64,000 nt of DNA from Candidatus Marinacidobacterales bacterium (GTDB taxonomy: Bacteria; Acidobacteriota; Vicinamibacteria; Marinacidobacterales; SMYC01). The stretch lies in assembly GCA_965237955.1 (NCBI GenBank), contig OZ250169.1, positions 6,304,001 to 6,368,000 of the forward strand. The letters are read 5' to 3'. The notes under the pieces are model-generated. The model did no database searches and was not told the DNA's origin. It was given only the letters and a program-made list of their open reading frames with translations. Shown in pieces: positions 45,249 through 63,039 of the stretch (the stretch's first letter is position 1; each line of letters opens with the position of its first letter). A program made the position numbers and the translations under genes.

Positions 45249-45301
45249 GAGGCCTGCGTGATGCGAAGAAATCCTGTCAACAGACAAAGGAACAGAGGGG
45301 T

Positions 45302-46732: not shown

Positions 46733-47060
46733 CGGTGATGGGCGGCTGGTTCAATGGCGCCGGCTTAGGTTCGCTGTTTTGCGGTCGAGATAATCAGGCT
46801 CGTCTCTTCCGGCTTGATCGCTTGCTTCGGACGCGCTCAGCAAAGGAAGAGGGAAGGCTGCCTGGGAGATGAAAGAGGAAAATCAACCAAAGCGAGCTCC
46901 CGCCGCCACGGGGCTCGCCGAGGCCGGCGGGATTTAGGATGATGCATGATCCGGCACGCGGCCACCCGCTTGACCACACAGAATTTCGATGCGCCAGCTC
47001 CGGATCCACCTACCGGGTGGGCTCGGGCGGCGCCTTCAATCACACGAAAGGAGCAACAGT

Positions 47061-47486
47061 ATGAAGAGAACAGCCGTACTTCTGTCTTGCGTTGGTCTCG
47101 TGGTGGCCTTTGTTTCCTGTCGGTCGTCGCAGGGTGCTACCCGGGAGGAAACACAACACACCGAACACACCGAACAACACGCCGATTCGCCAGCTGGGGA
47201 GCAATTGGAGCAAATCAGGGCGTCGCTCTTGGAAGTGACGGCCGAGTTGAATGAGCAGGGGAAATACAATTGCTGTATCGAGCCGCGCTGCAGCTGGTGT
47301 GCGCTCCACGAAGGTGAGTGTGAGTGCTTCAGCAATCTTCAACAAGGCGAAGAGGTGTGCCCGGGATGCGGATTGGGCTGGCACAACGGGAACGGCATCG
47401 TCGAGGGTGTCAGCGCCAGCGAAGTGAAGTGGAACATTGCTCACAGTCATGGCGAACATGGCTCGGAGGAGCAACCCGAGCATTAA
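47061..47486 (+). CDS. Cys/His-rich lipoprotein of unknown function
   Basis: SD AAGGAG, lipobox FVSC, 8-Cys cluster CCIEPRCSWC..CEC..CPGC, His-rich ends. Confidence 0.75.
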   Translation: MKRTAVLLSCVGLVVAFVSCRSSQGATREETQHTEHTEQHADSPAGEQLEQIRASLLEVTAELNEQGKYNCCIEPRCSWCALHEGECECFSNLQQGEEVCPGCGLGWHNGNGIVEGVSASEVKWNIAHSHGEHGSEEQPEH

Positions 47487-50400
47487 TCCAATGGCCGGGT
47501 ACTCCTGGGCAGCTCTCGTTTCTTCCAGATGGCGAAGATGGCCGGATAGATAGTCAATCCGAATGCGAAGGACGTCACCAATCCTCCGACCATTGGCGCG
47601 GCAATCCGCTTCATCACGTCGGCTCCAGTGCCGGTGCTCCACATGACCGGCAAGAGCCCGATCATGGTGGTCAGCACCGCCATCACCTTCGGACGAATCC
47701 GGCGAGCGGCTCCCTCCACGATCGTTTCGCGAAGGTCCTCGAAGGACCGTAGGCGACCTTCGCGTTGACTTCGAACGTAAGCGAGCTTGAGATAGAGCAG
47801 CATGATCACACCCGTCTCGGCGTCGAGCCCGGCGAGGGCGATAAGTCCCACCCAGACGGCGATGCTCATGTTGTAGTCGAGAAGCCACAGGAGCCAGATG
47901 GCACCCACGAGAGAGAACGGAACCGCCAGCAAGACGATGCCGGTCTCAGTGATGGAGCCGGTGTTCATGTAGAGAAGCATGAAAACGATGAGGAGTGTGA
48001 CGGGGACGCCGATCTTGAGTCGCTCCTTCGCCCGCTCCAAGTAAACGAACTGACCCGCCCACTCGAGCCGGACTCCTGGAGGAAGCTCCACGCGCTCGTT
48101 GACGAGGCGCCGCGCTTCGTCCACATAGTCGCCGAGGGGCCGGCCGACGATGTCGACGAAGACGAAGTTCACAAGCTGTCCGTCCTCGCTTCGGATCATC
48201 GGGGGGCCCGTCGCGAAGCCTATCTCGGCTACCTGAGGCAGAGGCACTTGGACACCGGTCGGCGTCGCGACGAGTACTCTTTTGAGGGCGTCGGGATGGT
48301 CGCGAAACTCGCGCGCGTAGCGCACCTGAATCGGATAGCGTTCCCGGCCTTCGACGGTTTCCGAGACGTTCCTGCCGCCGATAGCGGTCATGACGACTTC
48401 GTTGACGTCCTGAACGCTCAGCCCATATCGAGACGCCGCCTGCCGGTTCACCTTTACGTCTAGGAAGAAGCCACCCGTCGCTCGCTCGGCGAAGGCACTC
48501 CGGGTTCCCGAAACCTCCCGTAGCGCTTGCTCGATCGCGATCGAAGCCTCCTCGAGCTCGCTCAAGTCGTCGCCGAAGACCTTAATGCCGAGCTGGCTTC
48601 GGATGCCGGTGGTAAGCATTTCGACGCGTGTCTGGATGGGCATCCACCAGATGTTGGGCATGCCGGGGTAGTCGAGCTCTCGGTCCATCTCGGCAATGAG
48701 GTCGTCCCACGTCAATCCGGGGCGCCACTGGTCTTTCGGTTTCAGCAATACGACGCTCTCAACCATGCCCACGGGAGCGGGATCGGTTGCGGTGCGCGCA
48801 CGGCCCATCTTTCCGAACACCCGCTCCACCTCGGGAAATTGCCGGAGCTTACGGTCCATCGATTGGAGGACTGTAGCAGCCTCGGTAATGGACATGCCCG
48901 GCGGCGCCGTAGGCATGTAGAGGATGGCGCCTTCATTGAGAGGCGGCATGAACTCACTTCCGAGGTCGAGGAACGCGGGGATGGTGGCGAGCATGATGAG
49001 CAGCGCAGCCACAACGGCGGTTTTCCGAAACCGCACGACCAGGCGGACGATGGGCGCATAGGCCAGAACGAGCCACCGGTTGAGCAGATTCTTTTCCTCA
49101 CCACGGATCCTGCCGCGGATGAATGTGGCGGCGAGCGCCGGCGTGAGGGTCACTGCAAGAATCGCAGCGAATCCCATCGAATAGGTCTTGGTGAAGGCGA
49201 GGGGTTTGAAGAGGCGACCCTCTACACCCTCGAGCGTGAAGACCGGCATGAAGGCGACGGTGATGACGAGCAACGAGAAGAAGACGCTCGGGCCGACCTC
49301 CTGCATAGCTTCGATGATCGCGGTCGTGCGGCCGCCCGGACTGCCATCATCCTTCCACTGTTCCAACTTCTTGTGAATGTTCTCAATAATAATGATCGCG
49401 GCGTCGACCATGGCGCCAATGGCAACCGCGATCCCTCCCAGGGACATGATGTTGATCGTGAGGCCCTGGTAGTACATGGGAACGAACGCGAACAAAACCC
49501 CGAGCGGCAACGTGATGATGGGGATGAGGGCGCTGCGAACGTGCATCAGGAAGAGGAAGATGACGACGCTCACGATGATCATCTCCTCGATGAGTGTGTG
49601 CTGGAGTGTTTCGATGGATGCCTCGATGAGCCCCGACCGATCGTAGGTCACGACGATCTCCACTCCGTCGGGGAGACTCCGTTCGATGTCCCCGAGGCGC
49701 TCTTTCACGGCGTGGATGACGTCGAGCGCGTTCTCGCCGTAGCGCATCACCACGATGCCTCCCACGACTTCGCCTTCCCCATCGAGCTCGGCGAGTCCAC
49801 GCCGCATGTCCGGACCGAGCTTCACCTCGGCCACGTCCTTGATGGTGATCGGGACCCCGGCGTCGTTCACCGCGAGGGGAGCCTGCTCCAGGTCTTCTAT
49901 CGACGTGACGTAGCCCCGCCCGCGCACCATCTGCTCGTGGCCGGCGATCTCGATCACCCGGCCGCCAGCCTCATGATTCGACTCGCGGACGGCCTGGATC
50001 ACCCGGCGCAGCGGAATGTCGTAGCCGAGTAGCTTGTTGGGATCGATGATGACCTGATACTGCTTGACGAATCCGCCCACTGAGGCCACCTCGGCGACTC
50101 CGGGGACGCTCTCGAGGGCGTACCGGAGGTTCCAGTCCTGGAGGCTCCGGAGCTGCTGAAGGTCGAAGTTTCCCGTCCGGTCGACGAGGGCGTACTCGAA
50201 TACCCACCCCACTCCCGTCGCGTCGGGACCGAGCGTCGGGGTGACACCGGCGGGCAAGGCTCCCTGCACCTCGTTCAAGTACTCGAGCACCCTGGAGCGC
50301 GCCCAGTACATGTCGGTGCCGTCTTCGAAGATGACGTAGACGAACGACAGGCCAAAAAAGGATTGTCCGCGTACGAGCTTCACCTGAGGTGCCGCCAGAA

Positions 50401-50641
50401 GGCTCGACGAGATCGGGAACGTGATCTGATCTTCCATGATATCGGGACTCTGGCCAGGCCACTCCGTGAACACGATGACCTGGACGTCGGAAAGATCAGG
50501 GATCGCGTCGAGCGGACCGTGGGTCATCCCGTAGTAGCCCCAGACCGCGAGACCGGCGACGAAGAGGACCGTCAGGAAGCGATTACGTGCGCTGGATTCG
50601 ATAACACGTGCGATGAAACCACCGTGGCTTGCCGGTTCCAT
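47483..50641 (-). CDS. cusA: CusA/SilA Cu(I)/Ag(I) RND efflux transporter
   Basis: DAIPDLSDVQVI, LGPDATGVGW, GAMVDAA, Met-triad contexts (YMPT, GMVES, WMPIQTR), RIRPKVM, RIAAPMVGG. Confidence 0.93.
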   Translation of the reverse strand: MEPASHGGFIARVIESSARNRFLTVLFVAGLAVWGYYGMTHGPLDAIPDLSDVQVIVFTEWPGQSPDIMEDQITFPISSSLLAAPQVKLVRGQSFFGLSFVYVIFEDGTDMYWARSRVLEYLNEVQGALPAGVTPTLGPDATGVGWVFEYALVDRTGNFDLQQLRSLQDWNLRYALESVPGVAEVASVGGFVKQYQVIIDPNKLLGYDIPLRRVIQAVRESNHEAGGRVIEIAGHEQMVRGRGYVTSIEDLEQAPLAVNDAGVPITIKDVAEVKLGPDMRRGLAELDGEGEVVGGIVVMRYGENALDVIHAVKERLGDIERSLPDGVEIVVTYDRSGLIEASIETLQHTLIEEMIIVSVVIFLFLMHVRSALIPIITLPLGVLFAFVPMYYQGLTINIMSLGGIAVAIGAMVDAAIIIIENIHKKLEQWKDDGSPGGRTTAIIEAMQEVGPSVFFSLLVITVAFMPVFTLEGVEGRLFKPLAFTKTYSMGFAAILAVTLTPALAATFIRGRIRGEEKNLLNRWLVLAYAPIVRLVVRFRKTAVVAALLIMLATIPAFLDLGSEFMPPLNEGAILYMPTAPPGMSITEAATVLQSMDRKLRQFPEVERVFGKMGRARTATDPAPVGMVESVVLLKPKDQWRPGLTWDDLIAEMDRELDYPGMPNIWWMPIQTRVEMLTTGIRSQLGIKVFGDDLSELEEASIAIEQALREVSGTRSAFAERATGGFFLDVKVNRQAASRYGLSVQDVNEVVMTAIGGRNVSETVEGRERYPIQVRYAREFRDHPDALKRVLVATPTGVQVPLPQVAEIGFATGPPMIRSEDGQLVNFVFVDIVGRPLGDYVDEARRLVNERVELPPGVRLEWAGQFVYLERAKERLKIGVPVTLLIVFMLLYMNTGSITETGIVLLAVPFSLVGAIWLLWLLDYNMSIAVWVGLIALAGLDAETGVIMLLYLKLAYVRSQREGRLRSFEDLRETIVEGAARRIRPKVMAVLTTMIGLLPVMWSTGTGADVMKRIAAPMVGGLVTSFAFGLTIYPAIFAIWKKRELPRSTRPLD

Positions 50642-50646
50642 AACGC

Positions 50647-52410
50647 CTACCACTGCTTCGTCGCCGACTTGAGCCGGCTTTCCGCGGCGACGAGAAAATT
50701 GCCGGAGGTGACGACAACGTCGCCCTCGGCAAGACCGGAGAGCACTTCGTAGTCGTCTCCGGATTTCACGCCGATTTCGATCTCCTGCGGTCGCAGCCGG
50801 CCCTCACCGAGATCGAGGAAGACGAGACGCCGGGGACCGGCGTACAGCACAGCTTCTTCGGGGACCACGAGTCTCTCGCCGCGTTCGCTGATGAGCTCGA
50901 CGTTCGCGTACATGTCGGGCTTCAGCTCAAGGCCCGGGTTCGGGAGCTCGACACGGATCCGCCCCGTCCGCGTGCGATCTTCGAGATACGGATAGATGAA
51001 GGACACCCGTCCTTGGAACTTCCTCCCAGGGAGGTACGGTAACGTCACCTCTGCTTTCTGGCCTTCCGAAATCGAGGGCAGCTCCGATTCGTAGACCTCG
51101 GCATCGATCCAGATACGGTCGAGTCCCGCGACCCGGTAGAGCACCTCGCCGGGCTCCACCGTCGCCCCGGCGAAGACGTTTTTCTCGATTACGTAACCGT
51201 CTACGGGCGACATGATCGGGAGGTATTGCTCGGGCTCGCCTCGGCTGACGATCTCGTCGACCTGCCACTCTTGAAGATCCCAGAGTCGAAGCCGCTTCCG
51301 AGCCGCGTCAACCAGATAGTCGGCCCGGGTTGGCGCCGAGGTCTCGCGCGCAGCACGCTGGCTTTCGAGGGCGGTGAGAAGCTCCTCCTGAGCGGCGTAG
51401 AGCTCGGGGCTGTAGAGAGTGAAAAGAGGTTTTCCTCTGCGCACACGCACCCCGGTGGCATCGGCATGGAGCTTTCCCACCCAACCGCGGTATTTGACCG
51501 TCACTTCGGCGAGGCGCCGCTCGTCATAGGTAACCTTTCCTACGGCGCGGAGGCGAACCGACACGTCTCGTCGAGCGACCGTTGCCGTCCGGACCCCGAT
51601 CGCCTGGCGGTGCTGGGCGTCCATGAAGATGACGCCGGTGTCGACTTCCTCCTGGGTCACGGGAACGAGATCCATCGAGCAGATGGGACAGGTTCCCGGC
51701 TCCTGGCTCTTGACCGAAGGGTGCATCGAGCAGGTGTAGTGGGAGATTTCTCCTTCGTGAGCGTGCTCGACGTGGGCTTCAATCTCTGGGAGGGTAGTAG
51801 GCTGAGCGACGGTTGAGTCCGTCTCGACTCCGCAGTTCGGCATGGCCTGACCCATGAAGGGGTTCTCGAGCTCCTCCCTGGGCTGCATCCACTTCGGAAA
51901 CGTCGACGTCGTGGGACAGGAATAGACGTGCCACCCTTCGAGTACACGAGTGTCGACATTGGCGAGAACGAGAAGAAGTCGGCTCAGCTCGCCAAACGCT
52001 TGGCGTGCAGCTTCCAGATCCGTTGCCTCGGCGAGAGGCGTCGCGACCCGGACAGACTCGGAAACGATGCTTTGGACACGGGGTGAGAGAGACCCGCTCT
52101 GGCCTTCGACCTCTTCCAGGGAGGAAGCGATGGCGGCAGCAGGAGCTCCGACGTCGTCGAGCCGGTCGTAGGCGAGCGCGATCCGAGCTTGTTCGTAGGC
52201 GGAAAGCGCCTCGCGCAGCGCTTCGAGGACCGGCTCGGGAAACTCCTCTCTCTCGAGAGCCGGGGCTCGCGTGCTCTTCATGCTCGACGTCGAGGCGCCC
52301 TCGTCTTTCGAACAGCTCGTGACACCGAGAGCTCCTGAAACGATCAGTAACGTCGCGGCGATAGGCCACGTCCGTCGCGGGCTTCTTTTATGGGCCTGAT
52401 GGGCGTTCAC
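50647..52410 (-). CDS. cusB: CusB-type membrane fusion protein with N-terminal DUF3347-like and heavy-metal-binding domains
   Basis: YSCP..WMQ..NPFMG..MPNCG; YTCSMHP..CPICSMDL; YSPEL; LKPDMYA. Confidence 0.88.
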   Translation of the reverse strand: MNAHQAHKRSPRRTWPIAATLLIVSGALGVTSCSKDEGASTSSMKSTRAPALEREEFPEPVLEALREALSAYEQARIALAYDRLDDVGAPAAAIASSLEEVEGQSGSLSPRVQSIVSESVRVATPLAEATDLEAARQAFGELSRLLLVLANVDTRVLEGWHVYSCPTTSTFPKWMQPREELENPFMGQAMPNCGVETDSTVAQPTTLPEIEAHVEHAHEGEISHYTCSMHPSVKSQEPGTCPICSMDLVPVTQEEVDTGVIFMDAQHRQAIGVRTATVARRDVSVRLRAVGKVTYDERRLAEVTVKYRGWVGKLHADATGVRVRRGKPLFTLYSPELYAAQEELLTALESQRAARETSAPTRADYLVDAARKRLRLWDLQEWQVDEIVSRGEPEQYLPIMSPVDGYVIEKNVFAGATVEPGEVLYRVAGLDRIWIDAEVYESELPSISEGQKAEVTLPYLPGRKFQGRVSFIYPYLEDRTRTGRIRVELPNPGLELKPDMYANVELISERGERLVVPEEAVLYAGPRRLVFLDLGEGRLRPQEIEIGVKSGDDYEVLSGLAEGDVVVTSGNFLVAAESRLKSATKQW

Positions 52411-53756
52411 TTCATACCTCCTTCGAGGGCCTTGTCCCTCGGTGCGTCTCGTCCGCTGCCGCTTTCATCTGCGATGGACAGGGCTGGAATCCTGCCGAGA
52501 GCGCGGTCCAGCTCAGCGCGGCGCCGGTAAAAGTCGGTGAGAGCCTCTTCGTAGCCGAGCTGGACGCTCCGCTGATTGCGTTCGGCTTCGATGAGCGCGA
52601 GAAAACTGTTCTGGCCGGTCTCGAACCCGGCCCTGGCAGCGCGAATCTGATCCCTCGAGGGGGGGAGGAGCCGGCTCCGATAAAGCTCCACGACGTGCTC
52701 GGCTTCGAGCAGTCTTTCCTGAGCCATGTAGACTTCGGCCCGGATCGTGTCCTCGAGCGCCGTGCGCGCACTTTCTGCCTGTTTGAGGGTCGCCGCCGCC
52801 TCGGCGGATGCGGCGCGGAGGCGATCGCGGCGAATGGGGATGTTGATGCCAATCCCGACCGTCCACCGATGCTCCGAATTACCCCACCTGGAATTGAACG
52901 AGGTCGTCGCCTCGAAGTCGGGGTAGAAATCCTTCTCGCGCAGACGGACCTCCACCTCTCGGGCTTCGATCTCCGCGAGGCGGGCCTTGAGCTCCGGTCG
53001 TTTGGCGAGCGCCCGGTCCGCCTGCCCCGTGATGTCGAGCTCCCGAGGCGCGGGCACAGCGAGCTCGGATGGGGGAGGAGGGAGGCTCGCGTCCGGCGCC
53101 CGATGAAGAAGCGCGTTCAACTGCGCGACGATTGTCCGCTGGCTCGTTCGTAGTACGACATCGCGATGGAGAACGTGCGCGACCTCGACCTCGGCCTGAA
53201 GCGGATCCTGCTGTGCGGCAAGCCCCGATACGTAGCGGGCCGTCGCGATGCGCTGGAAGTCCTCCAACAGACCGATGTGCTCGGCGTTGATTTCGAGCGC
53301 ACGGACGACAAAGTAGTAATCGTCGAAGAGCAAGGAGGCCAACGTCGCTAGCTGCAGCCGCACAGCCTGGTAATCGTGACGAGCCGCTTCGGCCTCGGCG
53401 CGAGCGATCTCTCCTCTGAGGCGAAGCTTGCCCGGGTAAGGGAGGCGCTGGGCAAAACCGATGCTCTGCCCGTAGCGCACGTCGCCGGCGCCAATGCTGA
53501 GCGGGGCGACGCTGTACGAGACACTGGGATCGTCGAGGCTCGACAACTGAGGCTCTCGCTCCCGCGCCGCCTCCCAGGCTTGGCGCGCTGCTTCGATCGC
53601 AGGGTTACGCTCGACTACGGCGCGGATCACCGTCTCGCGATCGAGCCGGTCGAGCTCGGAAAGAGGATCCCGCTGCGGTTCTTGAGCGAGTAAGAGCGCC
53701 GAGCTCAGTTCCAATGCCGCAAACTTCAGTAAGTAGTATAGGAAAACGTTTCGCAA
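52407..53756 (-). CDS. TolC/CusC-family outer membrane factor
   Basis: NPAI, QRLPYPGKL, RPEL, YPD, LLPP. TTG start 53756 with SD GGGAGG. Confidence 0.88.
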   Translation of the reverse strand: MRNVFLYYLLKFAALELSSALLLAQEPQRDPLSELDRLDRETVIRAVVERNPAIEAARQAWEAAREREPQLSSLDDPSVSYSVAPLSIGAGDVRYGQSIGFAQRLPYPGKLRLRGEIARAEAEAARHDYQAVRLQLATLASLLFDDYYFVVRALEINAEHIGLLEDFQRIATARYVSGLAAQQDPLQAEVEVAHVLHRDVVLRTSQRTIVAQLNALLHRAPDASLPPPPSELAVPAPRELDITGQADRALAKRPELKARLAEIEAREVEVRLREKDFYPDFEATTSFNSRWGNSEHRWTVGIGINIPIRRDRLRAASAEAAATLKQAESARTALEDTIRAEVYMAQERLLEAEHVVELYRSRLLPPSRDQIRAARAGFETGQNSFLALIEAERNQRSVQLGYEEALTDFYRRRAELDRALGRIPALSIADESGSGRDAPRDKALEGGMK

Positions 53757-53871
53757 ATTGGCCTCCCGCGCCTGCACGAGCGGCAGACGTTGTCCAAGTG
53801 ATTGGATGGATTTAAGGAGGCGGCGGAAGGAGTACCGCACGCCCTCGCCCGTGCAGACGGGCGCTAGGGCA

Positions 53872-54249
53872 TCAACTCAGGAGTGGAATGTCGAGGGGTT
53901 GGTTCGCCAGTAAGGGGGGCGATCCGCGCGAAGACGAAAACGGAATGACTCTGTAGCCGGCGTCGGGCGCGGTGACGACAGCGGCTAGGACGGCCGCGCC
54001 TGGGGCGCCCTTGACGTCCATAGAGGACGGGAAGGGCGATTCCACCGACGCAGGGTTCTGCGAAGTTCTATCCGGCTTGCAGCAGTCCTCAGTCTTCTCA
54101 GGCATGTTGCAATGGTGAGCATCGCCGCGGCAGCACTCCATCGCCTGCTTGTCGTCCGGTCCATCGGCACAGACGAGACCGGCCAGCGAAGAGAGGACCA
54201 GGACGAGCACAAGACACCCGCCGGCCGTCTTCGAGGCTAATCCTGCCAT
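53872..54249 (-). CDS. Cys-rich leader ORF with signal-like N-terminus and C-terminal RGSPP (putative regulatory uORF of cusCBA)
   Basis: Hydrophobic CLVLVLVLSSLAGLVC, MECC..HHC..DCC core, RGSPP at 53928-53914; TATAGT lies 6 nt before the ATG. Confidence 0.7.
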   Translation of the reverse strand: MAGLASKTAGGCLVLVLVLSSLAGLVCADGPDDKQAMECCRGDAHHCNMPEKTEDCCKPDRTSQNPASVESPFPSSMDVKGAPGAAVLAAVVTAPDAGYRVIPFSSSRGSPPLLANQPLDIPLLS

Positions 54250-54303
54250 GTGCCTACTATAGCCTGGCCCACTTCAAGTTTCGAGCCTGCTAGAGACATT
54301 ATT

Positions 54304-56019
54304 GCCTCTCCTGCCATTTCAGTGGATCCTCTCGAGGGTGAGACCGCCACAGTTTAGGTAGACGAGACTGATGAGAGCTTCGGCAGAGTGGAGTCCAAAG
54401 CTGCGGTGGCTCAGCAGCCGGATTTTGTTGTTCATTCCTTCGAGTCGGCCGTTGCTGAGTCTCCACGTGACCCACGCGATGACGCCATCGAAGTGGCTGC
54501 TCATCTTCGCCGCGCGTTTGACGGGCTCTATCCTCGAGCTCATAGCGCGCCGCAGCCATCCTCGGAGAAACTTCTTGGCCCATGTCTCGGTTTTGTAGGT
54601 GTAGAGGTCCATGAAGTTGTCGCGCAGAAGCATGGCGCGGTAGAGGCGACGATTAGCTCGCACCTGCTCGCGGAGCACCCGTTTGTCTTTCGCGCTGCGG
54701 TTGTGTTTGGCCTTGAGAAGGGGAAACTTGGTGTTCTTGAGGTTGCGCCGGGCAGTCCCTTTGAGCTCGCGCACCAGCTCGCGCCGGGTCTTATCCACGG
54801 CCTCGTTCAGATGCTTGACGATGTGGAAGCGGTCAAAGATCACCCGTGCCTGAGGAGCCTTTTTGCCGACGACAGTTATGTACGGCTCCCACATGTCCAT
54901 GCTGACCGCTTCGAGCTCCGCGGCTCTTTGTGGTCCGAGCTTGCGGAAAAACCGCAGCAGCGTCTTGGCCTTGCGCTCCTTTCCCGCCCAGACGACCCGG
55001 CCGCTGAGATGGTCTATTACCACTGTTAAGTACTTGTGGCGTTTGCGGTAGCTGATCTCGTCCATCCCAATCACCCGCAATCCATCGAGCTCGCGCCGCT
55101 CATCCCGCTGCTCGGCAACCACTCGCTGGATGATCCGTCGCACCGAACGCCACGTCACTCGGAAATAGTTCGCTACGGCGCTGACGTCCGTCCTCTGTGC
55201 CAGCCACGCTACCTCTTGTTCGAAGCTTTTGGTAAAGCGGCTTCCCTTGTCGGCCCAAGGCACCTTTTCTCTGACCACTCCACACCGCCGACATACTACT
55301 CGTCGGATCGAGTAGCGAAGATAGGTCCGGACTCCGAACAGGTCCAAGTGCCGCCAGTAGCGATTGTAGCGATCTTTGTTCTTGCGGACCTTTCGTCCGC
55401 AAATCCCGCACAGAGGCTTCCTCCTCCGTGGTACTACATCCACCACCACTCTGGCTTTGTCCGCCTGGAAGTGGAAACCTCGGACCCACAGGCCTTGCAA
55501 TCCGATGAGCTTGTTGACTAACGTAGTAACGCGCATCGCTGGAACGCTCTTTTCTCTTTCGGAAAAAAAGATTCTAGCGTTCTCGCCGATGCGCATCTAC
55601 ACATGGCTTACCCTCTCAACCCACGGGCCTCACCAAATGCCACTGCCCCTCAGCGGGAGACGAGGCTGTGGGAAACGCCCCCACGGTTCTGGTCGTTCAG
55701 ACCTTGCTCACGACTGAGTTCTCTTCGAAGCCTGGAAGGGCGTTTTCCATAGCCTCCACTAATCGAGCCCCCCCTTCCTTATTCCATATGAATTAATCTT
55801 TCTTGTATATATATCAGGAGGGGCCTGTGGGCGCTCGTGGGAAACGCGAAGCGTTTTCCAAGCGATTGTGGAAAACGCCGCTCCACGTTTGTACGTGCTC
55901 ACAACCTTTCCCTAAACGCCTCTCTCGCCCGGAGTTTCCGGCGTTTTCCACAATCGCGGCAGCGTCCATAGGCCATGCCCTCCAACACAAATCAGATCCC
56001 CCGAAACGACAGGAGAACC
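54304..56019 (-). mobile_element. ISL3-family insertion sequence, copy 2 (1716 bp)
   Basis: Same IRs as copy 1; own 8-bp TSD ACATTATT at 54296-54303 and 56020-56027. Confidence 0.95.
54319..55536 (-). CDS. ISL3-family transposase
   Basis: As copy 1; intact C-terminus RSFGLHS; 3-bp deletion relative to copy 1. Confidence 0.93.
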   Translation of the reverse strand: MRVTTLVNKLIGLQGLWVRGFHFQADKARVVVDVVPRRRKPLCGICGRKVRKNKDRYNRYWRHLDLFGVRTYLRYSIRRVVCRRCGVVREKVPWADKGSRFTKSFEQEVAWLAQRTDVSAVANYFRVTWRSVRRIIQRVVAEQRDERRELDGLRVIGMDEISYRKRHKYLTVVIDHLSGRVVWAGKERKAKTLLRFFRKLGPQRAAELEAVSMDMWEPYITVVGKKAPQARVIFDRFHIVKHLNEAVDKTRRELVRELKGTARRNLKNTKFPLLKAKHNRSAKDKRVLREQVRANRRLYRAMLLRDNFMDLYTYKTETWAKKFLRGWLRRAMSSRIEPVKRAAKMSSHFDGVIAWVTWRLSNGRLEGMNNKIRLLSHRSFGLHSAEALISLVYLNCGGLTLERIH

Positions 56020-56030
56020 ACATTATTAAA

Positions 56031-56308
56031 GGCGCGGTGCAACGTGGTCTAACGGTAACGTCGCCCAATTCGGGCTAACGCCGACTCGCGGTGCTACATC
56101 ATCCGCTACGGTTTCTACAGAACGAGGTCAGGGAAACGCCGTCGATATCGCTGCGTCGGGTGCGGAAAGACGTTCCCCGACGAAAGGCACGCCCTACTAC
56201 AGTCTCCAGCATCGGCGAGCTACGTTCGATGCGGTCGTGGCGCTCAGAGTTGAGGGCGTCAGCATTTCCGCGATTGCTCGGATCGAAGGGATTGCCTGGA
56301 ACACCGTC
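56031..56308 (+). pseudogene. IS1-family transposase N-terminal remnant (Zn ribbon + HTH)
   Basis: IIRYGFYRTRSGKRRRYRCVGCGKTF / TKGTPYY..VEGVSISAIARIEGIAWNTV, frameshifted and truncated. Confidence 0.65.
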
Positions 56309-56487
56309 AGAGAGGCCCGGGCGATCGATGGCAACGCGATGACGGCGAGATGGTAGACGGAGGTAACGGAGGCGTGCCTGGGCGAAAGGAAACTCGCCAC
56401 CACGGTGGATCGCGTTCCGCGTCGGCTCACGAAATATCCATCGACCTCTTCTCGAGCACTTTGGTTCGGAGAGAGCGGTCGGGAAGT

Positions 56488-56516
56488 TTGACTTAGCGCG
56501 AAGCTTCGGGGAGAAT
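56488..56516 (+). promoter_or_regulatory. Putative sigma-70 promoter for the His-rich leader (leaderless start)
   Basis: TTGACT-N17-GAGAAT, 7 nt before GTG 56524. Confidence 0.5.
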
Positions 56517-56523
56517 CAACGTT

Positions 56524-56985
56524 GTGAAGGGCCATGTCCATAGGATTGTCACTGCAAGCCTCCAGATAGCTGCGCTGATCGTTTTCTCGGCTGCGGCTCC
56601 TCTGGCTCATCTTCATCAAGGTCAAGGTCAACGCGGTCGAGGTCACTTCGATCATCACGAACGTCACGGGGAGCTCCCGCCACATCACGGGATCACATTT
56701 CATGCTCATTTAGACGGCCACCCGCACGGCTCGAACCAAGAGTCCACTGAGGATCCTAGCGGCCGGGGTGAGAGCCAAGACGATTCCCTGAACATCTCGC
56801 ACGGCCGGATGGACTCAACCCGCATCGAGCGGCCCGCGGGTCCCCACCTCGCGCTCGCGGCCACGGTCGAGCTCAGTCCCCCATCGACTACGTGTCCTGC
56901 CCTCGCCAGCGCTGGTTTTGACGTCTATCGCCCGCCGCCGCTTCTCTTCCGAAAGCCTGTCCGTGCCCCACCCTCCTCTTGCTAA
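56524..56985 (+). CDS. His-rich leader ORF with signal/TM N-terminus and C-terminal RAPP arrest motif (putative regulatory uORF)
   Basis: IAALIVFSAAAPLAHLH, His-rich core, RPPP...VRAPP (RAPP codons 56962-56973), then SSC stop. Confidence 0.75.
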   Translation: MKGHVHRIVTASLQIAALIVFSAAAPLAHLHQGQGQRGRGHFDHHERHGELPPHHGITFHAHLDGHPHGSNQESTEDPSGRGESQDDSLNISHGRMDSTRIERPAGPHLALAATVELSPPSTTCPALASAGFDVYRPPPLLFRKPVRAPPSSC

Positions 56986-56999
56986 GAGGTAAGTGAGTC

Positions 57000-57083
57000 T
57001 GCCTTTCTAAAGGCACATCCACTTTTTCTTTTTTTTCCGAATTCTTAGCATTCTTAACTGGGTTGATGCCCGCATCGGAAGGA
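57000..57083 (+). promoter_or_regulatory. Attenuator-like spacer: hairpin, U-tract and anti-SD pairing
   Basis: TGCCTTT-CT-AAAGGCA (57000-57015), T-rich 57023-57036, TTCCGA (57035-57040) complementary to TCGGAA overlapping the SD (57075-57083). Confidence 0.5.
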
Positions 57084-57088
57084 CGTGT

Positions 57089-58414
57089 ATGTCCGAAAAG
57101 GTGACGATCGCATTGGGTCTCGGACGGAACTTGTTTCTCACGACGCTGACTGCGGTTTCCGCGGTCCTGCCCCAGGTATCGGCGCCCCAGGTATCCGCGG
57201 AAGAGTCCGTCCAGCGAATCACCCTCGAGCAGGCGTTAGAGATGTTCGAAGAGAACAACCTGGAGCTCCGTGTAGTAGCGGCCGAGCGTGACCGGGCACT
57301 CGGCTTCGCCGAGCAGGCCAAAGCGCATCCAAATCCGGTGGCGGCAGTTAGCCACGAGGGTTTGTCTGAGAGTGGGCGAGACTACTCGGAAAGCTACTTC
57401 ACGCTCAGCCAGCGTCTGGAGTGGCCAGGACGACGTGGGGCGCGAGCAGAGACGTCGGGCGGGGAGGCGGCCGCGCTGGAATCGAGGCTCGATGCGGAGC
57501 GCCATCGACTCGCGTTCGAGGTGAAGCGGACCTTCATCGAGGCGGTGGATGCGGAGGAACGGGTGGCCGTTGCCTCTGAAGTCCGCTCGGTTTTCCGGAT
57601 GGCGGAGAATAGCGGCCGGGAGCGTTTCCGCGAGGGGGACCTATCCGGCTATGACGCGCGACGACTTCGCATCGAGCGAGCGCGTTACGAAAACCTTGGC
57701 GCGTCGGCCGAAATTGATCTCAAGAACGCGCGTCTACGGCTCGCGTCCTTGATTCTCCCCGGAGCGCCCGGACAAGACCTCCAGGAGATCGCCCCAACGG
57801 CGGCGCCCGAGGGCGTACCTCCGTCCGTCCGGGAGCTTCAGGAGAAAACGGCGGTAGCACTCGCTCTCGAGCGGCGGGCGGACATGCGAAGCGCTGAGGC
57901 GCAGATGGCCGCGGCGGACGCTTCCATCCGGTATCTCTCGACCTTCACGGGGCCGGATGTGACGTTGACAGGAGGCTACAAGCGGCAATCCGATGGCTTC
58001 GATGGCTTTTTCTTGGGAGTGAACGTTCCGCTTCCCACGTTCGACCGTCGGAAAGGGGACCTCGAAGCCGCCGAGGCCGGTTTGCGTGCCGCGATCGCGC
58101 GGGTTGATCTCACCCGGCGTTCGATCGAGAACGACGTGCGGAGCTCGCTGGCAGCGTATGCGTCCGTCTCCGAGCGCATCGTCCTGATTCGCAACCAGCT
58201 CCTGACTGGAACCGACGATCTGCTTCGGATCGCGCGCGTGAGCTACAGCGAGGGCGAGATGTCTCTGCTGGAGCTCCTCGATGCCGCCGAAGCGTTCACA
58301 GAATTACAGACCATGGAGTCGCAACTCAAGTCGGAGCACTGGATTCGTTACTACGACCTCGAGCGCGCGACGGGTACAGCCATCAGCGTCATGACAGGGG
58401 AAATCGAGCCATGA
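57089..58414 (+). CDS. TolC/CzcC-family outer membrane factor
   Basis: NNLEL, HPNP, SQRLEWPGRR, VPLPTFDR, YSEGEMSLLELLDA. Confidence 0.9.
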   Translation: MSEKVTIALGLGRNLFLTTLTAVSAVLPQVSAPQVSAEESVQRITLEQALEMFEENNLELRVVAAERDRALGFAEQAKAHPNPVAAVSHEGLSESGRDYSESYFTLSQRLEWPGRRGARAETSGGEAAALESRLDAERHRLAFEVKRTFIEAVDAEERVAVASEVRSVFRMAENSGRERFREGDLSGYDARRLRIERARYENLGASAEIDLKNARLRLASLILPGAPGQDLQEIAPTAAPEGVPPSVRELQEKTAVALALERRADMRSAEAQMAAADASIRYLSTFTGPDVTLTGGYKRQSDGFDGFFLGVNVPLPTFDRRKGDLEAAEAGLRAAIARVDLTRRSIENDVRSSLAAYASVSERIVLIRNQLLTGTDDLLRIARVSYSEGEMSLLELLDAAEAFTELQTMESQLKSEHWIRYYDLERATGTAISVMTGEIEP

Positions 58415-59923
58415 AGACATCGGCGAATGCGTTGACCGTGGATCTTGCTATCGTCCTCCTTGCGTTCGGCCTTACGAGCTGCGTCGAACCAAGGCCGAGC
58501 GGTGACGTAAGCCAGGAGGAGGATCACGAGCACGGGGGCGGAGCGGCGGTCACGATCTGGACAGAGAACGTGGAGCTCTTTTTCGAGTATCCCCCTATGG
58601 TGGCGGGTGGGGCCGGCGAACCGTGGGCCATCCATCTGACCTTTCTCGAGGACTTCCAGCCGGTGAGAGAGGGCAAACTGACGCTCCGCTTCGTCGGACC
58701 GGATCAGAAGGAGTACACGAGCGTCGCCGAGACTCCGGCGCGAGACGGGATCTTCACGCCGGCCCCCTCGCTTCCGAACGAAGAGGCTTACCAACTCACG
58801 ATGACCCTCGAAAGCCCGAGGGGGGAGGAAGAGATTCCGGTGGGCGAGATCCGCGTCTTCGGCTCGAGCGCAGAGCTCCCGCACGCAGAGGACGCTCCCG
58901 CCGCCGGCATCTCTTTCCTCAAGGAGCAGCAGTGGACCACTCCCTTCGCCACCGCGCCCGCGATCGAGCGCGAGCTCAAGCGGTCGATATCGGCGAACGG
59001 CGAAATCGTTCCGGTCCCGAATGCCGTCGCTCGAGTTACGGCGCCAGTGGAAGGAATCGTCCGCGCGAAGCACAACCTCGGCGCACCCATTCCCGGTGAT
59101 TGGGTGGAAGCGGGAGAGCGAATCGCCGTTTTGTCCCCCGTCCCGGAGGAGAACGCCTACGCGGCGCTCAAGGCCAAGGTGGAAGCGCTTGGAGCGCGAA
59201 GTCGAGCGTGCCGAGCGGCTGAGCGCGGTCGAGGCCATCCCGGAGAGACGGCTCGTCGAAGCGCGGCACGACCTGGAAGTGAGCCGCGCCGCGCTCGAAG
59301 CCGTCGGCGACGTGGACGGAGAGGGTTACGAGCTGACGCTCACCGCTCCCATCAACGGTCTCGTGACGGAGCGTAATCTGACAATAGGCGAGAGGGTTCG
59401 TGCAGGCGAACGCCTGTTCAGCATCGTCGACCCAAAAACGCTGTGGCTACGCGTCCAGATTCCCGCTCGGGAGGCGGCAATCGTGTCCGAGGTTTCGAGT
59501 GGGTCGTTTACAGTCGAAGGGAGCCCACGGGTGTACGACGGTGCCCGGCTCGTCTCTGTCGGAGCCGCTATCGACCCCGAACGGCGCACGCTTCCGGTGG
59601 TCCTCGAAACGCGAAATCGAGACGGAAGGCTGAAGGTCGGGATGCTCGTCGAAGCCCGGCTCTTCCTCGCCGAAAGCGTTGAGGGAGTCGCGGTCCCCTC
59701 ACGGGCGCTCCGCAAAGAGGACGCCCTCGACGTGGCGTACGTCCAAGTAGGTGGAGAGAGCTTCGAGCGGCGTGTGCTTGCGCTCGGGCCCTCAGACGGC
59801 AAGTGGACCCTGGTGACGGGCGGTATCCGTTCTGGCGAGCGCGTCGTCACCGAAGGTGCTTATCAGGTTCGCCTCGCGTCGCTCAACGCGTCGGAGATCG
59901 CGGATCACGGCCACCCACATTAG
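58411..59923 (+). CDS. CzcB-like membrane fusion lipoprotein (1-nt frameshift near 59185)
   Basis: Lipobox LTSC, DHEH, T.W...ELFFEYPP, FLKEQQW, LTAPING, GESFERR, C-terminal HGHPH. Confidence 0.85.
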
Positions 59924-59934
59924 AAGACTGCATA

Positions 59935-62900
59935 ATGCTGGACAAAGTCATCCGTTGGTCTCTGCAAAACCGCCTGGTCACGCTTTTCGGCGCTGCCGCG
60001 GTATTGGCCGGAGGCCTCTATTCGGCGGTAACGATCCCTATCGATGTCTTCCCGGACTTGACCGCGCCCACGGTGACCGTGCTCACGGAAGCGCACGGCA
60101 TGGCGGCCGAGGAGGTCGAGCTTCTCGTCACCTTCCCCATCGAGACCGCGGTCAACGGCGCCGCCGGCGTGAGGCGGGTGCGCTCGTCGTCCGCTCAAGG
60201 AATCAGCATCGTCTGGGTCGAGTTCGACTGGGGTGAGGACATCTACCGTGCGCGCCAGATCGTAAGTGAGAAGCTTCAGCTTGTCGCCGCCCAGCTCCCC
60301 CGGAGCACGAGCCCACCGGTTCTCGCACCCATCACTTCCATCATGGGTGAGATCTTGCTCGTGGGCCTCACGAGCGAAAGTCTCCCTCCGATGGAGGTAC
60401 GAACCGTCGCCGACTGGGTGGTTAGGAAGCGGCTTCTCGCCATTCCGGGCGTGGCTCAAGTCGTTCCCATCGGAGGAGCGGTGAAGCAGTATCAGGTCCT
60501 GGTTCACCCCGATCGTCTGCGTTCCTACGGTGTGACGCTTTCGGACGTGCTCCGCGCCGCCGAGAGCTCGAACGCCATTGCCTCGGGCGGTGTCTATCTC
60601 GAGAGCGGGCAGGAGATCCTCATCCGGGGCCTAGGCCGCGTTCAGCAGCTCGCGGACATTGAAAAAACGGTGGTGCGCCTCTCGAGCGGCACTCCCGTCC
60701 GTATCGGCGACGTCGCCGACGTTTCGATCGGCGCCAAGCCTCGTTTCGGGACCGCCTCCGTCAACGCCGAGCCTGCCGTCGTCCTTTCTATCCAGAAACA
60801 GCCGAACGCGAACACACTCGAGCTGACGAAGCGGATCGACGAGGAGCTCGACCGGCTGAAGGCGAGCCTCCCCGAGGGGATCGCCATCAACCGGGGGATC
60901 TTCCGGCAAGCCGACTTCATCTCTTTGGCGGTAGACAACGTTTTTGAGGCGCTTCGCGACGGCGCGCTTCTCGTCGTCGTCATCCTGTTCCTCTTCCTCT
61001 GGAACTTCCGCACCACACTGATTTCCATCGTCGCCATCCCGCTGTCGCTCGCTGTCGCCGTCATCACGATGAAGCTCCTCGGAATCACGATCAACACCAT
61101 GACCCTCGGCGGGATGGCGATCGCGATCGGCGCCCTCGTGGACGATGCGATCATCGACGTCGAGAATACCTTCCGCCGCCTGAGGGAGAACCGCCGCCTT
61201 CCGGAGCCAGAGCGCCGGCGGGCTCTCCCCGTCGTTTACGACGCAGCGCGAGAGATTCGTGCTCCCATCGTGAAGGCCACGGTCATTATTTCGATTGTCT
61301 TCGTTCCTCTGTTCTTCCTCTCCGGAGTCGAGGGCTGCATGCTTCAGCCTCTGGGCTTTGCTTACATCGTCAGCATCCTCGCGTCGCTCGGGGTGGCGGT
61401 TACCGTCACGCCGGTCCTCTGTTCGTTCCTGCTTCCCCGAGCAGGTTTCCTCGACCGGGAGCGTGAGAGCTGGCTAGTGGAACGCTTGAAGGGAGTCTAC
61501 GCGCGGACGCTCGCCCTCGTTCTGAAACACCCGACGGCGGTCACGATCGCAGCGGTGCCCTTCGTCGTCGTGACGGTAGCACTCTTCCCGTTCCTGGGTC
61601 GGGGCTTTCTACCGGAGTTCCAGGAGGGAACGCTCACCGTGTCCGCGGTGACCGTGCCGGGAACGGGCATCGTAGAGTCTGACGAGCTCGGGCGGCTGGT
61701 CGAGCGGAAGATGCTAGCGCACCCTGCGGTGGTTTCCACCGCGCGGCGCACAGGGCGAGCCGAGCTCGACGAGCACGCTCAGGGTGTGAACGCCTCCGAG
61801 ATCGACGTTGTCTTGATCAGCGATCTTTCCCAGGCAGAGCTCTCAGACGTCATGGACGAGCTCCGGGTGGAGCTCGCCACCGTTCCCGGAACCAACATCA
61901 CGATGGGTCAGCCGATCGGCCATCGTATCGACCACATGCTCTCCGGCACGCGTGCTGCGATCGCCGTCAAGATCTTCGGGCCCGAGCTGCACGAGCTCCG
62001 CCGGATCGCGGAGGCTGTGAGGACCGCTGTTGAGGACGTGCCCAGAGTAGCCGACCTGGCGGTCGAGCAGCAGGCGGACGTACCCCAACTTCGCATCGCC
62101 GCCGATCGCGACGCCATGAGCAAGTACGGCGTGACTCCGGGGACTCTTGCCGAGGCCATCGATGTAGCCTTCTATGGAGAACCCGTCTCTCAGGTGCTCG
62201 AAGGACAAAACGCCTTCGACCTCGTCGTGCGCTTCGATGCGGAACATCGTGGAAGTGCCGAGAAGATACGGAACACGGTCATCGATACGCCTCTCGGCGC
62301 GAGGGTTGAGCTTGCATGGCTCGCCTAGATCGCGGAGGACCGCGGGCCCAACACGGTCTCCCGGGAGAACGTCCAGAGAAAGATTGTGGTGCAATCGAAC
62401 GTCAGCGGCCGTGACGTGGCGAGCGTGGTCGAGGAATTCCGCGAGAGAATCGACACGAGCATCGAACTTCCCCAGGGCTACTACGTCGAGTACGGCGGCC
62501 AGTTCGAAAGCGGTGAGGCGGCGGCTCGCGCGATCAGCGTTTTATCGGCCGTTTCCATTCTCGCCATCTTCCTGATCCTCTACCAGGAGTTCGGAAGTGC
62601 TAGCACCGCGCTTCTCATCATGGTCAACTTGCCGCTGGCTCTGATCGGCGGTGTAGGGGCGCTTCTCGCATCGGGTGGGGTGCTGAACGTTGCCTCGTTG
62701 GTGGGTTTCATCACCCTGTTCGGCATCGCCGTCAGAAACGGCATTCTTCTCGTTAGCCACTACAATCGCCTGATGGTGGAAGGCGAGCCTCGCCGAGAGG
62801 CGGTCGTCCGGGGCTCCCTCGAGCGGCTGAATCCCATTCTCATGACGGCCTTGACCGCGGCTCTCGCGCTCATTCCACTCGCCATCGGCGGTGGTGAGGC

Positions 62901-63039
62901 AGGAAAGGAGATCCAGTCCCCGATGGCGATCGTGGTGCTAGGAGGACTTTTGAGCTCGGCCGCCCTCAACATGGTCGTGGTGCCCGCTCTTTTCCTTCGC
63001 TATGGGAAGCAGGCGCGAGCCACGGAGGTCCTTGAATGA
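59935..63039 (+). pseudogene. CzcA/NrsA-like divalent-metal RND transporter with in-frame TAG at 62326-62328
   Basis: DVFPDLTAP, LVDDAIIDVEN, GRAELDEH, RNGILL, ERLNPILMT; the reading frame continues unchanged after the TAG. Confidence 0.85.

Follow-up and report, generated by a model that had tools for sequence, protein, structure and literature searches.

Small open reading frames (ORFs) that lead an operon and sense metal in cis are already published as CutF-like proteins. The CutF-like set holds 5334 proteins, SilD and CusD among them, and their commonest neighbour is the outer-membrane factor of a resistance-nodulation-division (RND) pump (CusC/CzcC/SilC) (PMC9973294). Two small ORFs, leader A and leader B, were compared with these systems. 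Both lie in a stretch of 64,000 nucleotides (nt) of Candidatus Marinacidobacterales bacterium (GenBank GCA_965237955.1, contig OZ250169.1, positions 6,304,001 to 6,368,000, forward strand), called the window below. Leader A stands before the TolC gene cusC of a cusCBA operon on the minus strand, and leader B before the TolC gene nieC of a second metal RND operon on the plus strand. Both are read here as conserved leaders, likely cis-acting metal-sensing translation switches of the CutF/CruR kind whose wiring is predicted to differ; the whole of this explanation is given a probability of about one half.

CutF of Rhodobacter capsulatus is alike in being a small first ORF with a Sec signal, a Cys/His core and a proline-containing C-terminus; the downstream Shine-Dalgarno (SD) sequence lies in a stem-loop and metal turns the downstream gene on. 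Copper-induced stalling of CutF has been reported (bioRxiv 10.1101/2025.02.05.636593). The first-pass annotation of the window had asked of the two exporters a logic opposite to that of CruR; this is not new, since such a metal-induced 'on' logic was already proposed and tested for CutF (PMC9973294; bioRxiv 10.1101/2025.02.05.636593). CutF stalls at a near-terminal PPP, whereas the predicted switch of leader A is its stop codon and its Pro-Pro (PP) is not conserved. Unlike CutF-like proteins, leaders A and B matched neither DUF2946 (PF11162) nor any other Pfam or NCBIfam family, CzcI (NF045614) and CopL (NF033807) included, and 18 leader A homologues were likewise without a Pfam match. The His-only CutF-like clusters precede HupE/UreJ and not RND pumps, unlike leader B (PMC9973294).

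CruR (Bp2923, DUF2946) of Bordetella pertussis has a RAPP motif near its C-terminus, as does leader B (PMC9426467). It arrests at RAPP in vitro, and Cys/His RAPP peptides have been proposed as metal sensors (PMC12992588). Copper is proposed to relieve this arrest, a step that is borrowed below for leader A. CruR controls an importer through Rho-dependent termination, needs no signal sequence and carries CXXC, whereas leader B is His-only and precedes an exporter. NieI/CzcI (nieIC-cep-nieBA, PMC7060636; NF045614) is also the first ORF before a NieA- or CzcA-type pump; annotations of CzcI name a regulator or an efflux protein and no arrest peptide, and leader B does not match it. SilD and CusD of Cupriavidus metallidurans CH34 are Cys-rich first ORFs of Cu/Ag RND operons without an adjacent regulator. 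In CH34, copper induces cusCBAF and not cusD, and silDCBA has no adjacent regulators, its control being called unexplained (PMC7563307).

Conserved ends of the two leaders

Leader A and its parts are as follows.

53872-54249, minus strand: leader A ORF, 125 residues (C7 H2 M4), export-type N-terminus, at the head of the cus operon
54079-54171, minus strand: Cys core, predicted Cu(I)/Ag(I) site (C27, M37, C39-C40, C47, C56-C57)
53917-53928, minus strand: R-G-S-P codons, candidate arrest site with the letters of the Mannheimia succiniciproducens SecM arrest motif
53872-53886, minus strand: end P-L-L-S-stop, of the L-[R/L]-[I/V/L]-stop group
54256-54284, minus strand: sigma70-like promoter, its -10 ending 6 nt before the ATG

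The core residues were invariant or nearly so in 18 aligned homologues, and the core would be expected to bind Cu(I)/Ag(I). The leader A family gave 44 matches; 39 with intact ends were kept and five that were truncated, shifted or distant were dropped, by a filter that itself relied on the last residues. The C-terminal region reads RGSPP at codons 18-14 before the stop. RG[S/F]P at -18 to -15 was largely kept (R in 34/39 intact homologues, G in 36/39, P in 36/39), and RGSP is listed for M. succiniciproducens SecM as a motif with experimental proof (PMC10987492). P(-4), L(-3) and P(-8) were each found in 39/39 and L(-2) in 38/39, and P-L-L was retained through synonymous codon changes. The PP at -15/-14, which falls within the last 15 residues as in the CutF-like definition, was kept in just 13/39. 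R[AG]PP was seen in 0/39 of these homologues and in 0/62 distant relatives.

Among 62 representatives of the distant relatives, 57 ended in hydrophobic-[L/R]-[I/L/V/N]. The same terminal type was present in 29 of the 31 whose profile match fell short of the tail, and in 10 of the 5222 long genome ORFs that served as the comparison set. Judged from these alignments, the candidate arrest site of leader A is not universal across distant relatives, unlike the terminal L-[R/L]-[I/V/L]. The PP wanders among them from about -5 to -46, and 104 of 117 such leaders carry a PP or RGxP at a variable distance within 50 residues of the end. The Cys core and the C-terminal end of the leader A group are a median of 74 residues apart. 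Leader A is under the 150-residue limit of the CutF-like definition and is followed on the same strand, after 115 nt, by cusC, which agrees with its rule of a metal-related gene no more than 1000 nt downstream. An AlphaFold model gave only the signal helix (residues 6-23); the remainder was of low confidence, with a mean predicted local distance difference test (pLDDT) score of 50.

The elements of leader B are listed next.

56524-56985, plus strand: leader B ORF, 153 residues (H16 C2), GTG start, export-type N-terminus
56962-56973, plus strand: RAPP codons, candidate arrest site; R, P and P invariant in nine aligned sequences
56488-56516, plus strand: sigma70-like promoter TTGACT-17-GAGAAT, ending 7 nt before the GTG and found in 8/8 relatives examined
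56991-57048, plus strand: conserved hairpin followed by a U-rich tract in the leader B-nieC spacer, terminator- or pause-like, in 9/9 sequences

Leader B ends in RAPP-SSC, a RAPP-type motif with its PP at -5/-4 and so inside the last 15 residues, and R[AG]PP was present in 16/16 database homologues. It lies 103 nt before nieC on the same strand; its length is just above the CutF-like limit (<150 residues) and its homologues are mostly of 135-159 residues. Transcriptional attenuation in the spacer is possible because the hairpin and U tract are kept in all nine sequences; a consensus terminator scan did not call this hairpin. In three relatives (L060-L062) the gene just before nieC resembles a His-rich CDF transporter and not a leader.

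A hydrophobic N-terminal stretch was present in both leader families. The claim of the first-pass annotation that each operon is headed by a small ORF with such a start was borne out, and the ratios of nonsynonymous to synonymous substitution rates (dN/dS) indicate coding under purifying selection: 0.15-0.19 for leader A against close homologues (three pairs; TolC gene controls 0.25-0.31) and 0.35-0.58 for leader B (six pairs of close homologues). It had also credited both ORFs with one design ending in a C-terminal PP. The upstream position was conserved in both families; the PP was conserved in leader B and failed for leader A. Among CusA-clade loci in relatives, 6/20 had a leader, four of the six being leader A homologues, and of the nine closest NieA loci that could be scored, eight had a leader B homologue. 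Across 301 genomes of the phylum, profile searches with both families found almost nothing, with two better matches in one genome (G058). An Rfam search of 52-58 kb gave no match.

Both leader mRNAs are predicted to be leaderless, since the -10 elements end 6-7 nt before the start codons. The -10 of leader A had an equivalent position in four relatives examined. In this promoter (54256-54290), 7 nt of spacer have been lost by comparison with TTGAAG-17-TACAGT of the relatives; another hexamer now stands at 17 nt, the -10 is TATAGT, and an ISL3 element was inserted about 20 nt upstream. A MerR-type promoter was ruled out by the 17-bp spacers, MerR-type promoters having a 19-bp spacer rule. The promoter spacers of the leaders differed in sequence and, by eye, no conserved operator was seen.

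Ribosome position and the start of the pump operons

Footprint folding was performed for each codon of a leader: the mRNA was removed to 13 nt beyond the ribosome and the energy cost of making the TolC start region accessible was calculated. The following elements of the leader A-cusC spacer were involved.

53757-53875, minus strand: spacer of 115 nt, with a hairpin from the stop codon; fold z -3.1
53815-53821, minus strand: anti-SD, paired with the SD GGGAGG at 53762-53767; covering the stop-proximal arm gives an alternative fold

With the ribosome at the PP (-15/-14) of leader A, the cost was 15.0 kcal/mol, the same as without a ribosome (15.0). At the last codon it dropped to 10.4-10.8 kcal/mol, and the anti-SD:SD helix at cusC gave way to another fold, with the anti-SD captured by upstream sequence. 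For leader A and five homologues (n=6; two further homologues were left out), the gains from -16 to -1 were 4.2, 6.6, 3.4, 8.2, 6.9 and 1.9 kcal/mol, and they were reached by 2, 0, 2, 1, 0 and 7 of 40 shuffles in the same order, leader A first.

The survey used 25 loci per pump class with spacers of at most 190 nt and 10 block shuffles each. CusA leaders gained 4.3 kcal/mol from -5 to -1 (shuffled -0.07, p 1.4e-4) and 0.9 (not significant) from -13 to -5. NieA leaders gained 2.85 kcal/mol from -13 to -5 (shuffled 0.24, p 5e-5) and -0.5 from -5 to -1. In 39 ordinary gene pairs the values were 0.06 (-13 to -5) and 0.35 (-5 to -1). Changing the footprint (9, 12 or 15 nt) left the -5 to -1 contrast in place, and the -13 to -5 contrast survived at two of these three sizes. 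On fresh loci just the first half of this result was repeated: nine L-[R/L]-x leaders gained 8.6 kcal/mol from -5 to -1 (7/9 at least 3) and 11 PP-ended leaders 0.49, and these PP-ended leaders gained only 1.3 from -13 to -5. The CusA-type switch opened at the last one to three codons and the NieA-class switch at the PP (codon -5).

SilD (pMOL30), which is homologous to the survey leader L256 and has the tail PP...C-C-F-R-I-stop, behaved in the same way, the cost falling from 15.5 at -12 to 6.4 at -1 with opening only at the last two codons. Leader A shares the L-[R/L]-x-stop end and the last-codon opening by which the SilD-type group is defined here. On a 14-residue stop-anchored matrix of SilD-type tails it scored -17.1, unlike SilD (19.5) and group members in leave-one-out scoring (-3.8 to 27.1). 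Leader A thus appears linked to SilD by its last three residues, position and RNA behaviour only, and homology is not established.

The computation places 'on' at the stop codon in leader A and at the PP in NieA-class leaders. A ribosome at the stop is probably the 'on' state of leader A, and that the leaders act in cis is likely. The first-pass annotation had both leaders stall at PP when metal-bound, the stall opening the pump start. Metal-sensing leaders controlling exporters fit the comparative evidence, and opening at codon -5 in the NieA class, with RxPP in 18/30 of its leaders, follows the CutF precedent; arrest at PP in leader A is unsupported, its PP being poorly kept and a ribosome there leaving cusC closed. 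As an account of both leaders, a PP stall is very unlikely.

Several observations weigh against the reading of both ORFs as translation switches. Leader A taken alone is borderline, its switch being equalled by 2/40 and 4/60 shuffles, and its open state still costs about 10 kcal/mol. In its homologue L032, opening of the SD alone was no better, and among four close sequences of its spacer no two-sided covariation was found. RxxP at -18/-15 occurs in 5/62 distant relatives only, and PP is frequent by chance in such Pro-rich peptides. The window's own leader B gave no switch by footprint folding, and a clear one was seen in only two (L056 and L057) of eight leader B relatives. Two L-[R/L]-I leaders before TolC-oxidase operons (L272 and genome position 7985243) were without a switch. 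The downstream start codons of the survey were picked automatically, some wrongly, and its loci are related, so that the p-values are overstated. Two metatranscriptome runs yielded mostly insertion sequence (IS) reads and scattered pieces, with no usable cover of the leaders.

The mechanism proposed runs as follows. Each leader would be the first gene of a leaderless mRNA made from a conserved sigma70-like promoter with a 17-bp spacer, the start site being deduced. By analogy with CutF, the nascent peptide would be exported co-translationally, so that its Cys or His core would be in the periplasm before the C-terminus has left the ribosome. The TolC ribosome-binding site would be sequestered in the computed fold. 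For leader A, the ribosome would wait without copper at the SecM-type RGSP with the cusC start closed. Cu(I)/Ag(I) on the CC...CC core would likely free it, as proposed for CruR, and the ribosome would then reach the stop, cover the first arm of the stop-proximal hairpin and open the cusC start. The 'on' sign needed for an exporter would come from the RNA wiring and not from an opposite peptide chemistry. In the leader B family a divalent metal (nickel is predicted) would likely lengthen the RAPP stall and open the nieC start, as in CutF. Export, metal binding and stalling are inferred here, as is the direction in which metal acts.

Release from RGSP is favoured for leader A, though at somewhat less than even odds, since in the close family a demonstrated elongation motif is retained where the start stays closed, and since 104/117 such leaders carry PP or RGxP upstream. 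Copper-induced termination arrest is a less likely rival: leader A and the L-[R/L]-[I/V/L]-stop group would be held by copper at the stop, keeping the cusC start open, and the upstream RGSP or PP would be a mere pause or tunnel contact. This accounts better than release does for the last residues, fixed in register to the stop in 57/62 distant relatives against 10/5222 ORFs, with P-L-L kept despite synonymous changes while PP drifts, and for a switch that opens exactly at the last one to three codons. The distance from core to end (median 74 residues) is also near the ~70 between CxxxC and PPP of CutF. The close family's demonstrated elongation-arrest motif RGSP would be superfluous under termination arrest, and PDZ proteases typically recognise C-termini of the form hydrophobic-x-hydrophobic, which was counted against it. 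Core-to-arrest spacing (medians 74 and 65) does not discriminate between release and termination arrest for leader A, and the induction of cusCBAF but not cusD in CH34 fits both. Termination arrest has precedents in NSP-stop, NAP-stop and DGMK-stop peptides (PMC10987492), comparable to the fixed end of leader A as SecM RGSP is to its RG[S/F]P. SecM and these stop-codon arrest peptides differ from leader A in standing before sec/yidC and monitoring protein export, and no metal core is described for them.

Pump clades, tail types and regulators

The pump operons behind the leaders consist of these genes.

52407-53756, minus strand: cusC-like TolC gene, TTG start at 53756
50647-52410, minus strand: cusB adaptor with a heavy-metal-binding domain
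47483-50653, minus strand: cusA, HME4 pump with Met triad (NCBIfam TIGR00914, 1163 bits)
57089-58414, plus strand: nieC-like TolC gene
58411-59923, plus strand: nieB-like adaptor, its frame interrupted near 59183 by a one-base shift (a trait of the strain or an assembly error)
59935-63039, plus strand: nieA-like HME pump with an in-frame TAG at 62326-62328

Pumps were assigned to clades by identity and motifs. The best solved match of pump A was Escherichia coli CusA (1152 bits), and the three binding-site Met, which we take to be Met573, Met623 and Met672, were aligned, as expected of CusA. The plus-strand operon, earlier called czcCBA-like, turned out to be of another clade. Pump B is ~30% identical to CusA, with two of the three Met positions missing, and ~35% identical to the CzcA-type pump L081; its motifs HAQGVN and HRIDH compare with HAEGVH and HRLDH of NieA (HME5/6 clade). 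Its identity to L081 and the NieA-type motifs rule out CzcA (HME1). For the NieA clade, nickel export is proposed and not shown (PMC7060636).

Survey 1 comprised 80 NieA-clade loci from genomes (79 once a duplicate was left out) and 80 CusA-clade loci from metagenomes. Leaders were called by position, a hydrophobic start, a length of 100-200 residues and Cys+His of at least 5, the last rule dropping seven ORFs. Loci with sufficient upstream DNA were taken as scorable, and candidates were found in 30/59 scorable NieA loci and 30/50 scorable CusA loci; four of these 60 were not leaders by eye, and were counted in the chemistry and removed from the RNA tests. His exceeded Cys in 28/30 NieA leaders (medians H11, C1) and Cys exceeded His in 23/30 CusA leaders (medians C6, H3). 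R[AGSPD]PP near the end was present in 18/30 NieA and 0/30 CusA leaders, and 14/30 CusA leaders had no PP.

Survey 2 covered true CzcA-type pumps of the host's phylum (38 loci) and CusA loci, with leader candidates in 18/26 scorable CzcA loci and 13/19 CusA loci. CzcA leaders were divided (His > Cys in 8/18, Cys > His in 9/18) and not separable from the 13 CusA leaders (p 0.17). The earlier claim that ligand chemistry matches the pump therefore stands for NieA against CusA; as a marker to tell CusA from true CzcA, Cys or His content was ruled out. L-[R/L]-x ended 10/13 CusA leaders of survey 2. CzcA leaders (L286-L312) mostly ended in [H/R/K/Y/E]-P-P-[R/K] plus 0-3 residues, a third tail type. 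Across these three clades, which are not independent contrasts, tail type as read from the alignments follows pump clade better than Cys/His does. Three leaders (L086, L087 and L288) ended in E-I-L-H-[V/I]-P-[K/R]. Matches below cut-off were found to DUF2946 in 2/72 survey leaders and to CzcI (NF045614) or CopL (NF033807) in 7/72, four NieA-clade leaders matching the CzcI model. Leaders recur before metal RND operons across many phyla.

The first-pass annotation had seen no regulator near the operons, and this stood: searches of 43.3-63 kb gave no match to a receiver domain, MerR, ArsR, CsoR, BlaI/CopY or ECF sigma factor. Elsewhere in the genome there were three MerR, at least four ArsR and about 60 receiver-domain matches. 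A regulator within 2.5 kb was found at 8/60 leader loci and 14/63 leaderless loci (pooled p 0.24); the contrast reached p 0.04 in the subset of NieA loci with the outer-membrane factor first only. Leaders as substitutes for local regulators were not supported, the two not being mutually exclusive. Absence of a local regulator is weak evidence for leader control, because of this non-exclusivity and because regulators occur elsewhere in the genome.

These regulators bear on a rival in which the ORFs are periplasmic metal-binding proteins, stable or short-lived (buffers or accessory proteins), with a protease-signal tail, a constitutive coupling hairpin and control by regulators elsewhere. The export-type N-terminus, the metal-ligand core, the MerR, ArsR and many two-component genes and the coexistence of leaders with local regulators agree with it. 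Any coupling hairpin would open at the stop, and CzcI, in the same position, is described as without a C-terminal proline motif (PMC9973294). A periplasmic protein sits poorly with the lack of a predicted fold (mean pLDDT 50), RxPP in 16/16 leader B homologues, the SecM-type RGSP of leader A and the class-specific opening position, at PP in NieA leaders. The variable promoter spacers without an operator conserved by eye, and the failure of cusD to be induced with cusCBAF, also speak against it, and we consider it improbable.

A BlaI/CopY-type repressor lay upstream of NieA-clade operons at 8/31 leaderless loci (L130, L150, L151, L158, L165, L172, L174 and L176), some with an apparent M56-type partner, and at 0/34 loci with a leader; such a module is a possible alternative control in this clade. 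Four leaderless CusA loci (within L040-L044) had a divergent two-component gene upstream.

Surroundings of the locus and meaning

The source genome, that of an acidobacterium, is a single contig of 8.13 Mb. Two further elements were annotated between the leaders.

54304-56021, minus strand: ISL3 element of 1718 bp, transposase at 54319-55596, with the 8-bp target duplication ACATTATT at 54296-54303 and 56022-56029
56030-56340, plus strand: broken transposase-like remnant, seen as reading frames with high multi-copy depth

The remnant is presumably IS1 InsA-like. The ISL3 element has more than 50 near-full genome copies (99.1-99.9% identity), with further copies at 1.8-3.5 kb of the window and just past its end; in run contigs the transposase gene is three bases longer near 54500. 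ISL3 and IS debris separate the two leader promoters, and five relatives that have both pumps (G008, G009, G013, G021 and G025) carry them on separate contigs or at a distance of over 100 kb. Two metal RND operons (cusCBA on the minus strand, TolC-adaptor-HME RND on the plus strand) are present as first annotated; their divergence from one region was not upheld, and a divergon with a shared control region is ruled out by the debris and the unlinked pumps.

The TAG at 62326 was read in contigs of runs X1 and X7 as well and so is real in this strain; runs X4 and X6 have a sense codon and four relatives a Glu codon. Some run contigs are one base short near 59183 in the adaptor gene. The window's copy of leader B and its operon are probably decaying, since no switch was computed and the pump gene holds a stop codon.

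A third copper-type operon (TolC, multicopper oxidase and a Cys/His-rich small protein) lies at 43911-47486, converging on cusA. Its counterparts in G008 (L271) and G023 (L272) have a Cys leader ending in LLI- or LRI-stop without PP; no leader was found for it at 43.3-43.9 kb, nor was a remnant detected. Elsewhere in the genome, a leader with a SilD-type tail (7985243-7985647, minus strand; score 16.5, C4 H5) precedes a second run of small protein, TolC and multicopper oxidase, and no switch was computed for its best start codon. A 95-residue leader of CruR-like design, with CxxC and RAPP (3212929-3213216, minus strand), lies 29 nt before a long ORF that by its look resembles a TonB-dependent receptor. 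At 40976-42863 of the window, a long exported Tyr/Gly/Trp/Arg-rich protein is split over two frames, with no convincing Pfam match.

Leader A marks a variant of the known kind with a different switch point, and leader B appears to be a further His/RAPP member on a decaying operon. In a literature search largely without subscription papers, none was found that sorts leaders by pump clade or describes the L-[R/L]-I-stop end or a switch at the stop; the cluster sequences or logos of PMC9973294 may already show these tails. The same search found no test of His-only RAPP sensing of divalent metal; His-only RAPP leaders before NieA pumps would extend sensing from copper to divalent metal. The published filter, a PP close to the C-terminus, groups together leaders whose switch points differ and passes over leaders that have no PP (14/30 in CusA). 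Two routes to the 'on' state are separated here, release from an upstream proline arrest and arrest at termination.

Many operons for Cu/Ag efflux lack a regulator next to them, silDCBA of C. metallidurans being one, and how they are controlled is called unexplained (PMC7563307). The prediction is that the first small gene is the sensor and that 'on' is a ribosome at its stop codon, which would explain how copper pumps are turned on without a nearby regulator. More tentatively, and against the odds, leader A, SilD, CusD and the Cys-rich leaders found across phyla could all be copper-gated termination-arrest peptides, with arrest specific to the clade (LRI-stop for CusA, R[AG]PP for NieA, xPP[R/K] for CzcA). 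If so, a metal sensor would govern peptide release across the membrane and would be the regulator that is missing where sil/cus operons lack a two-component system.

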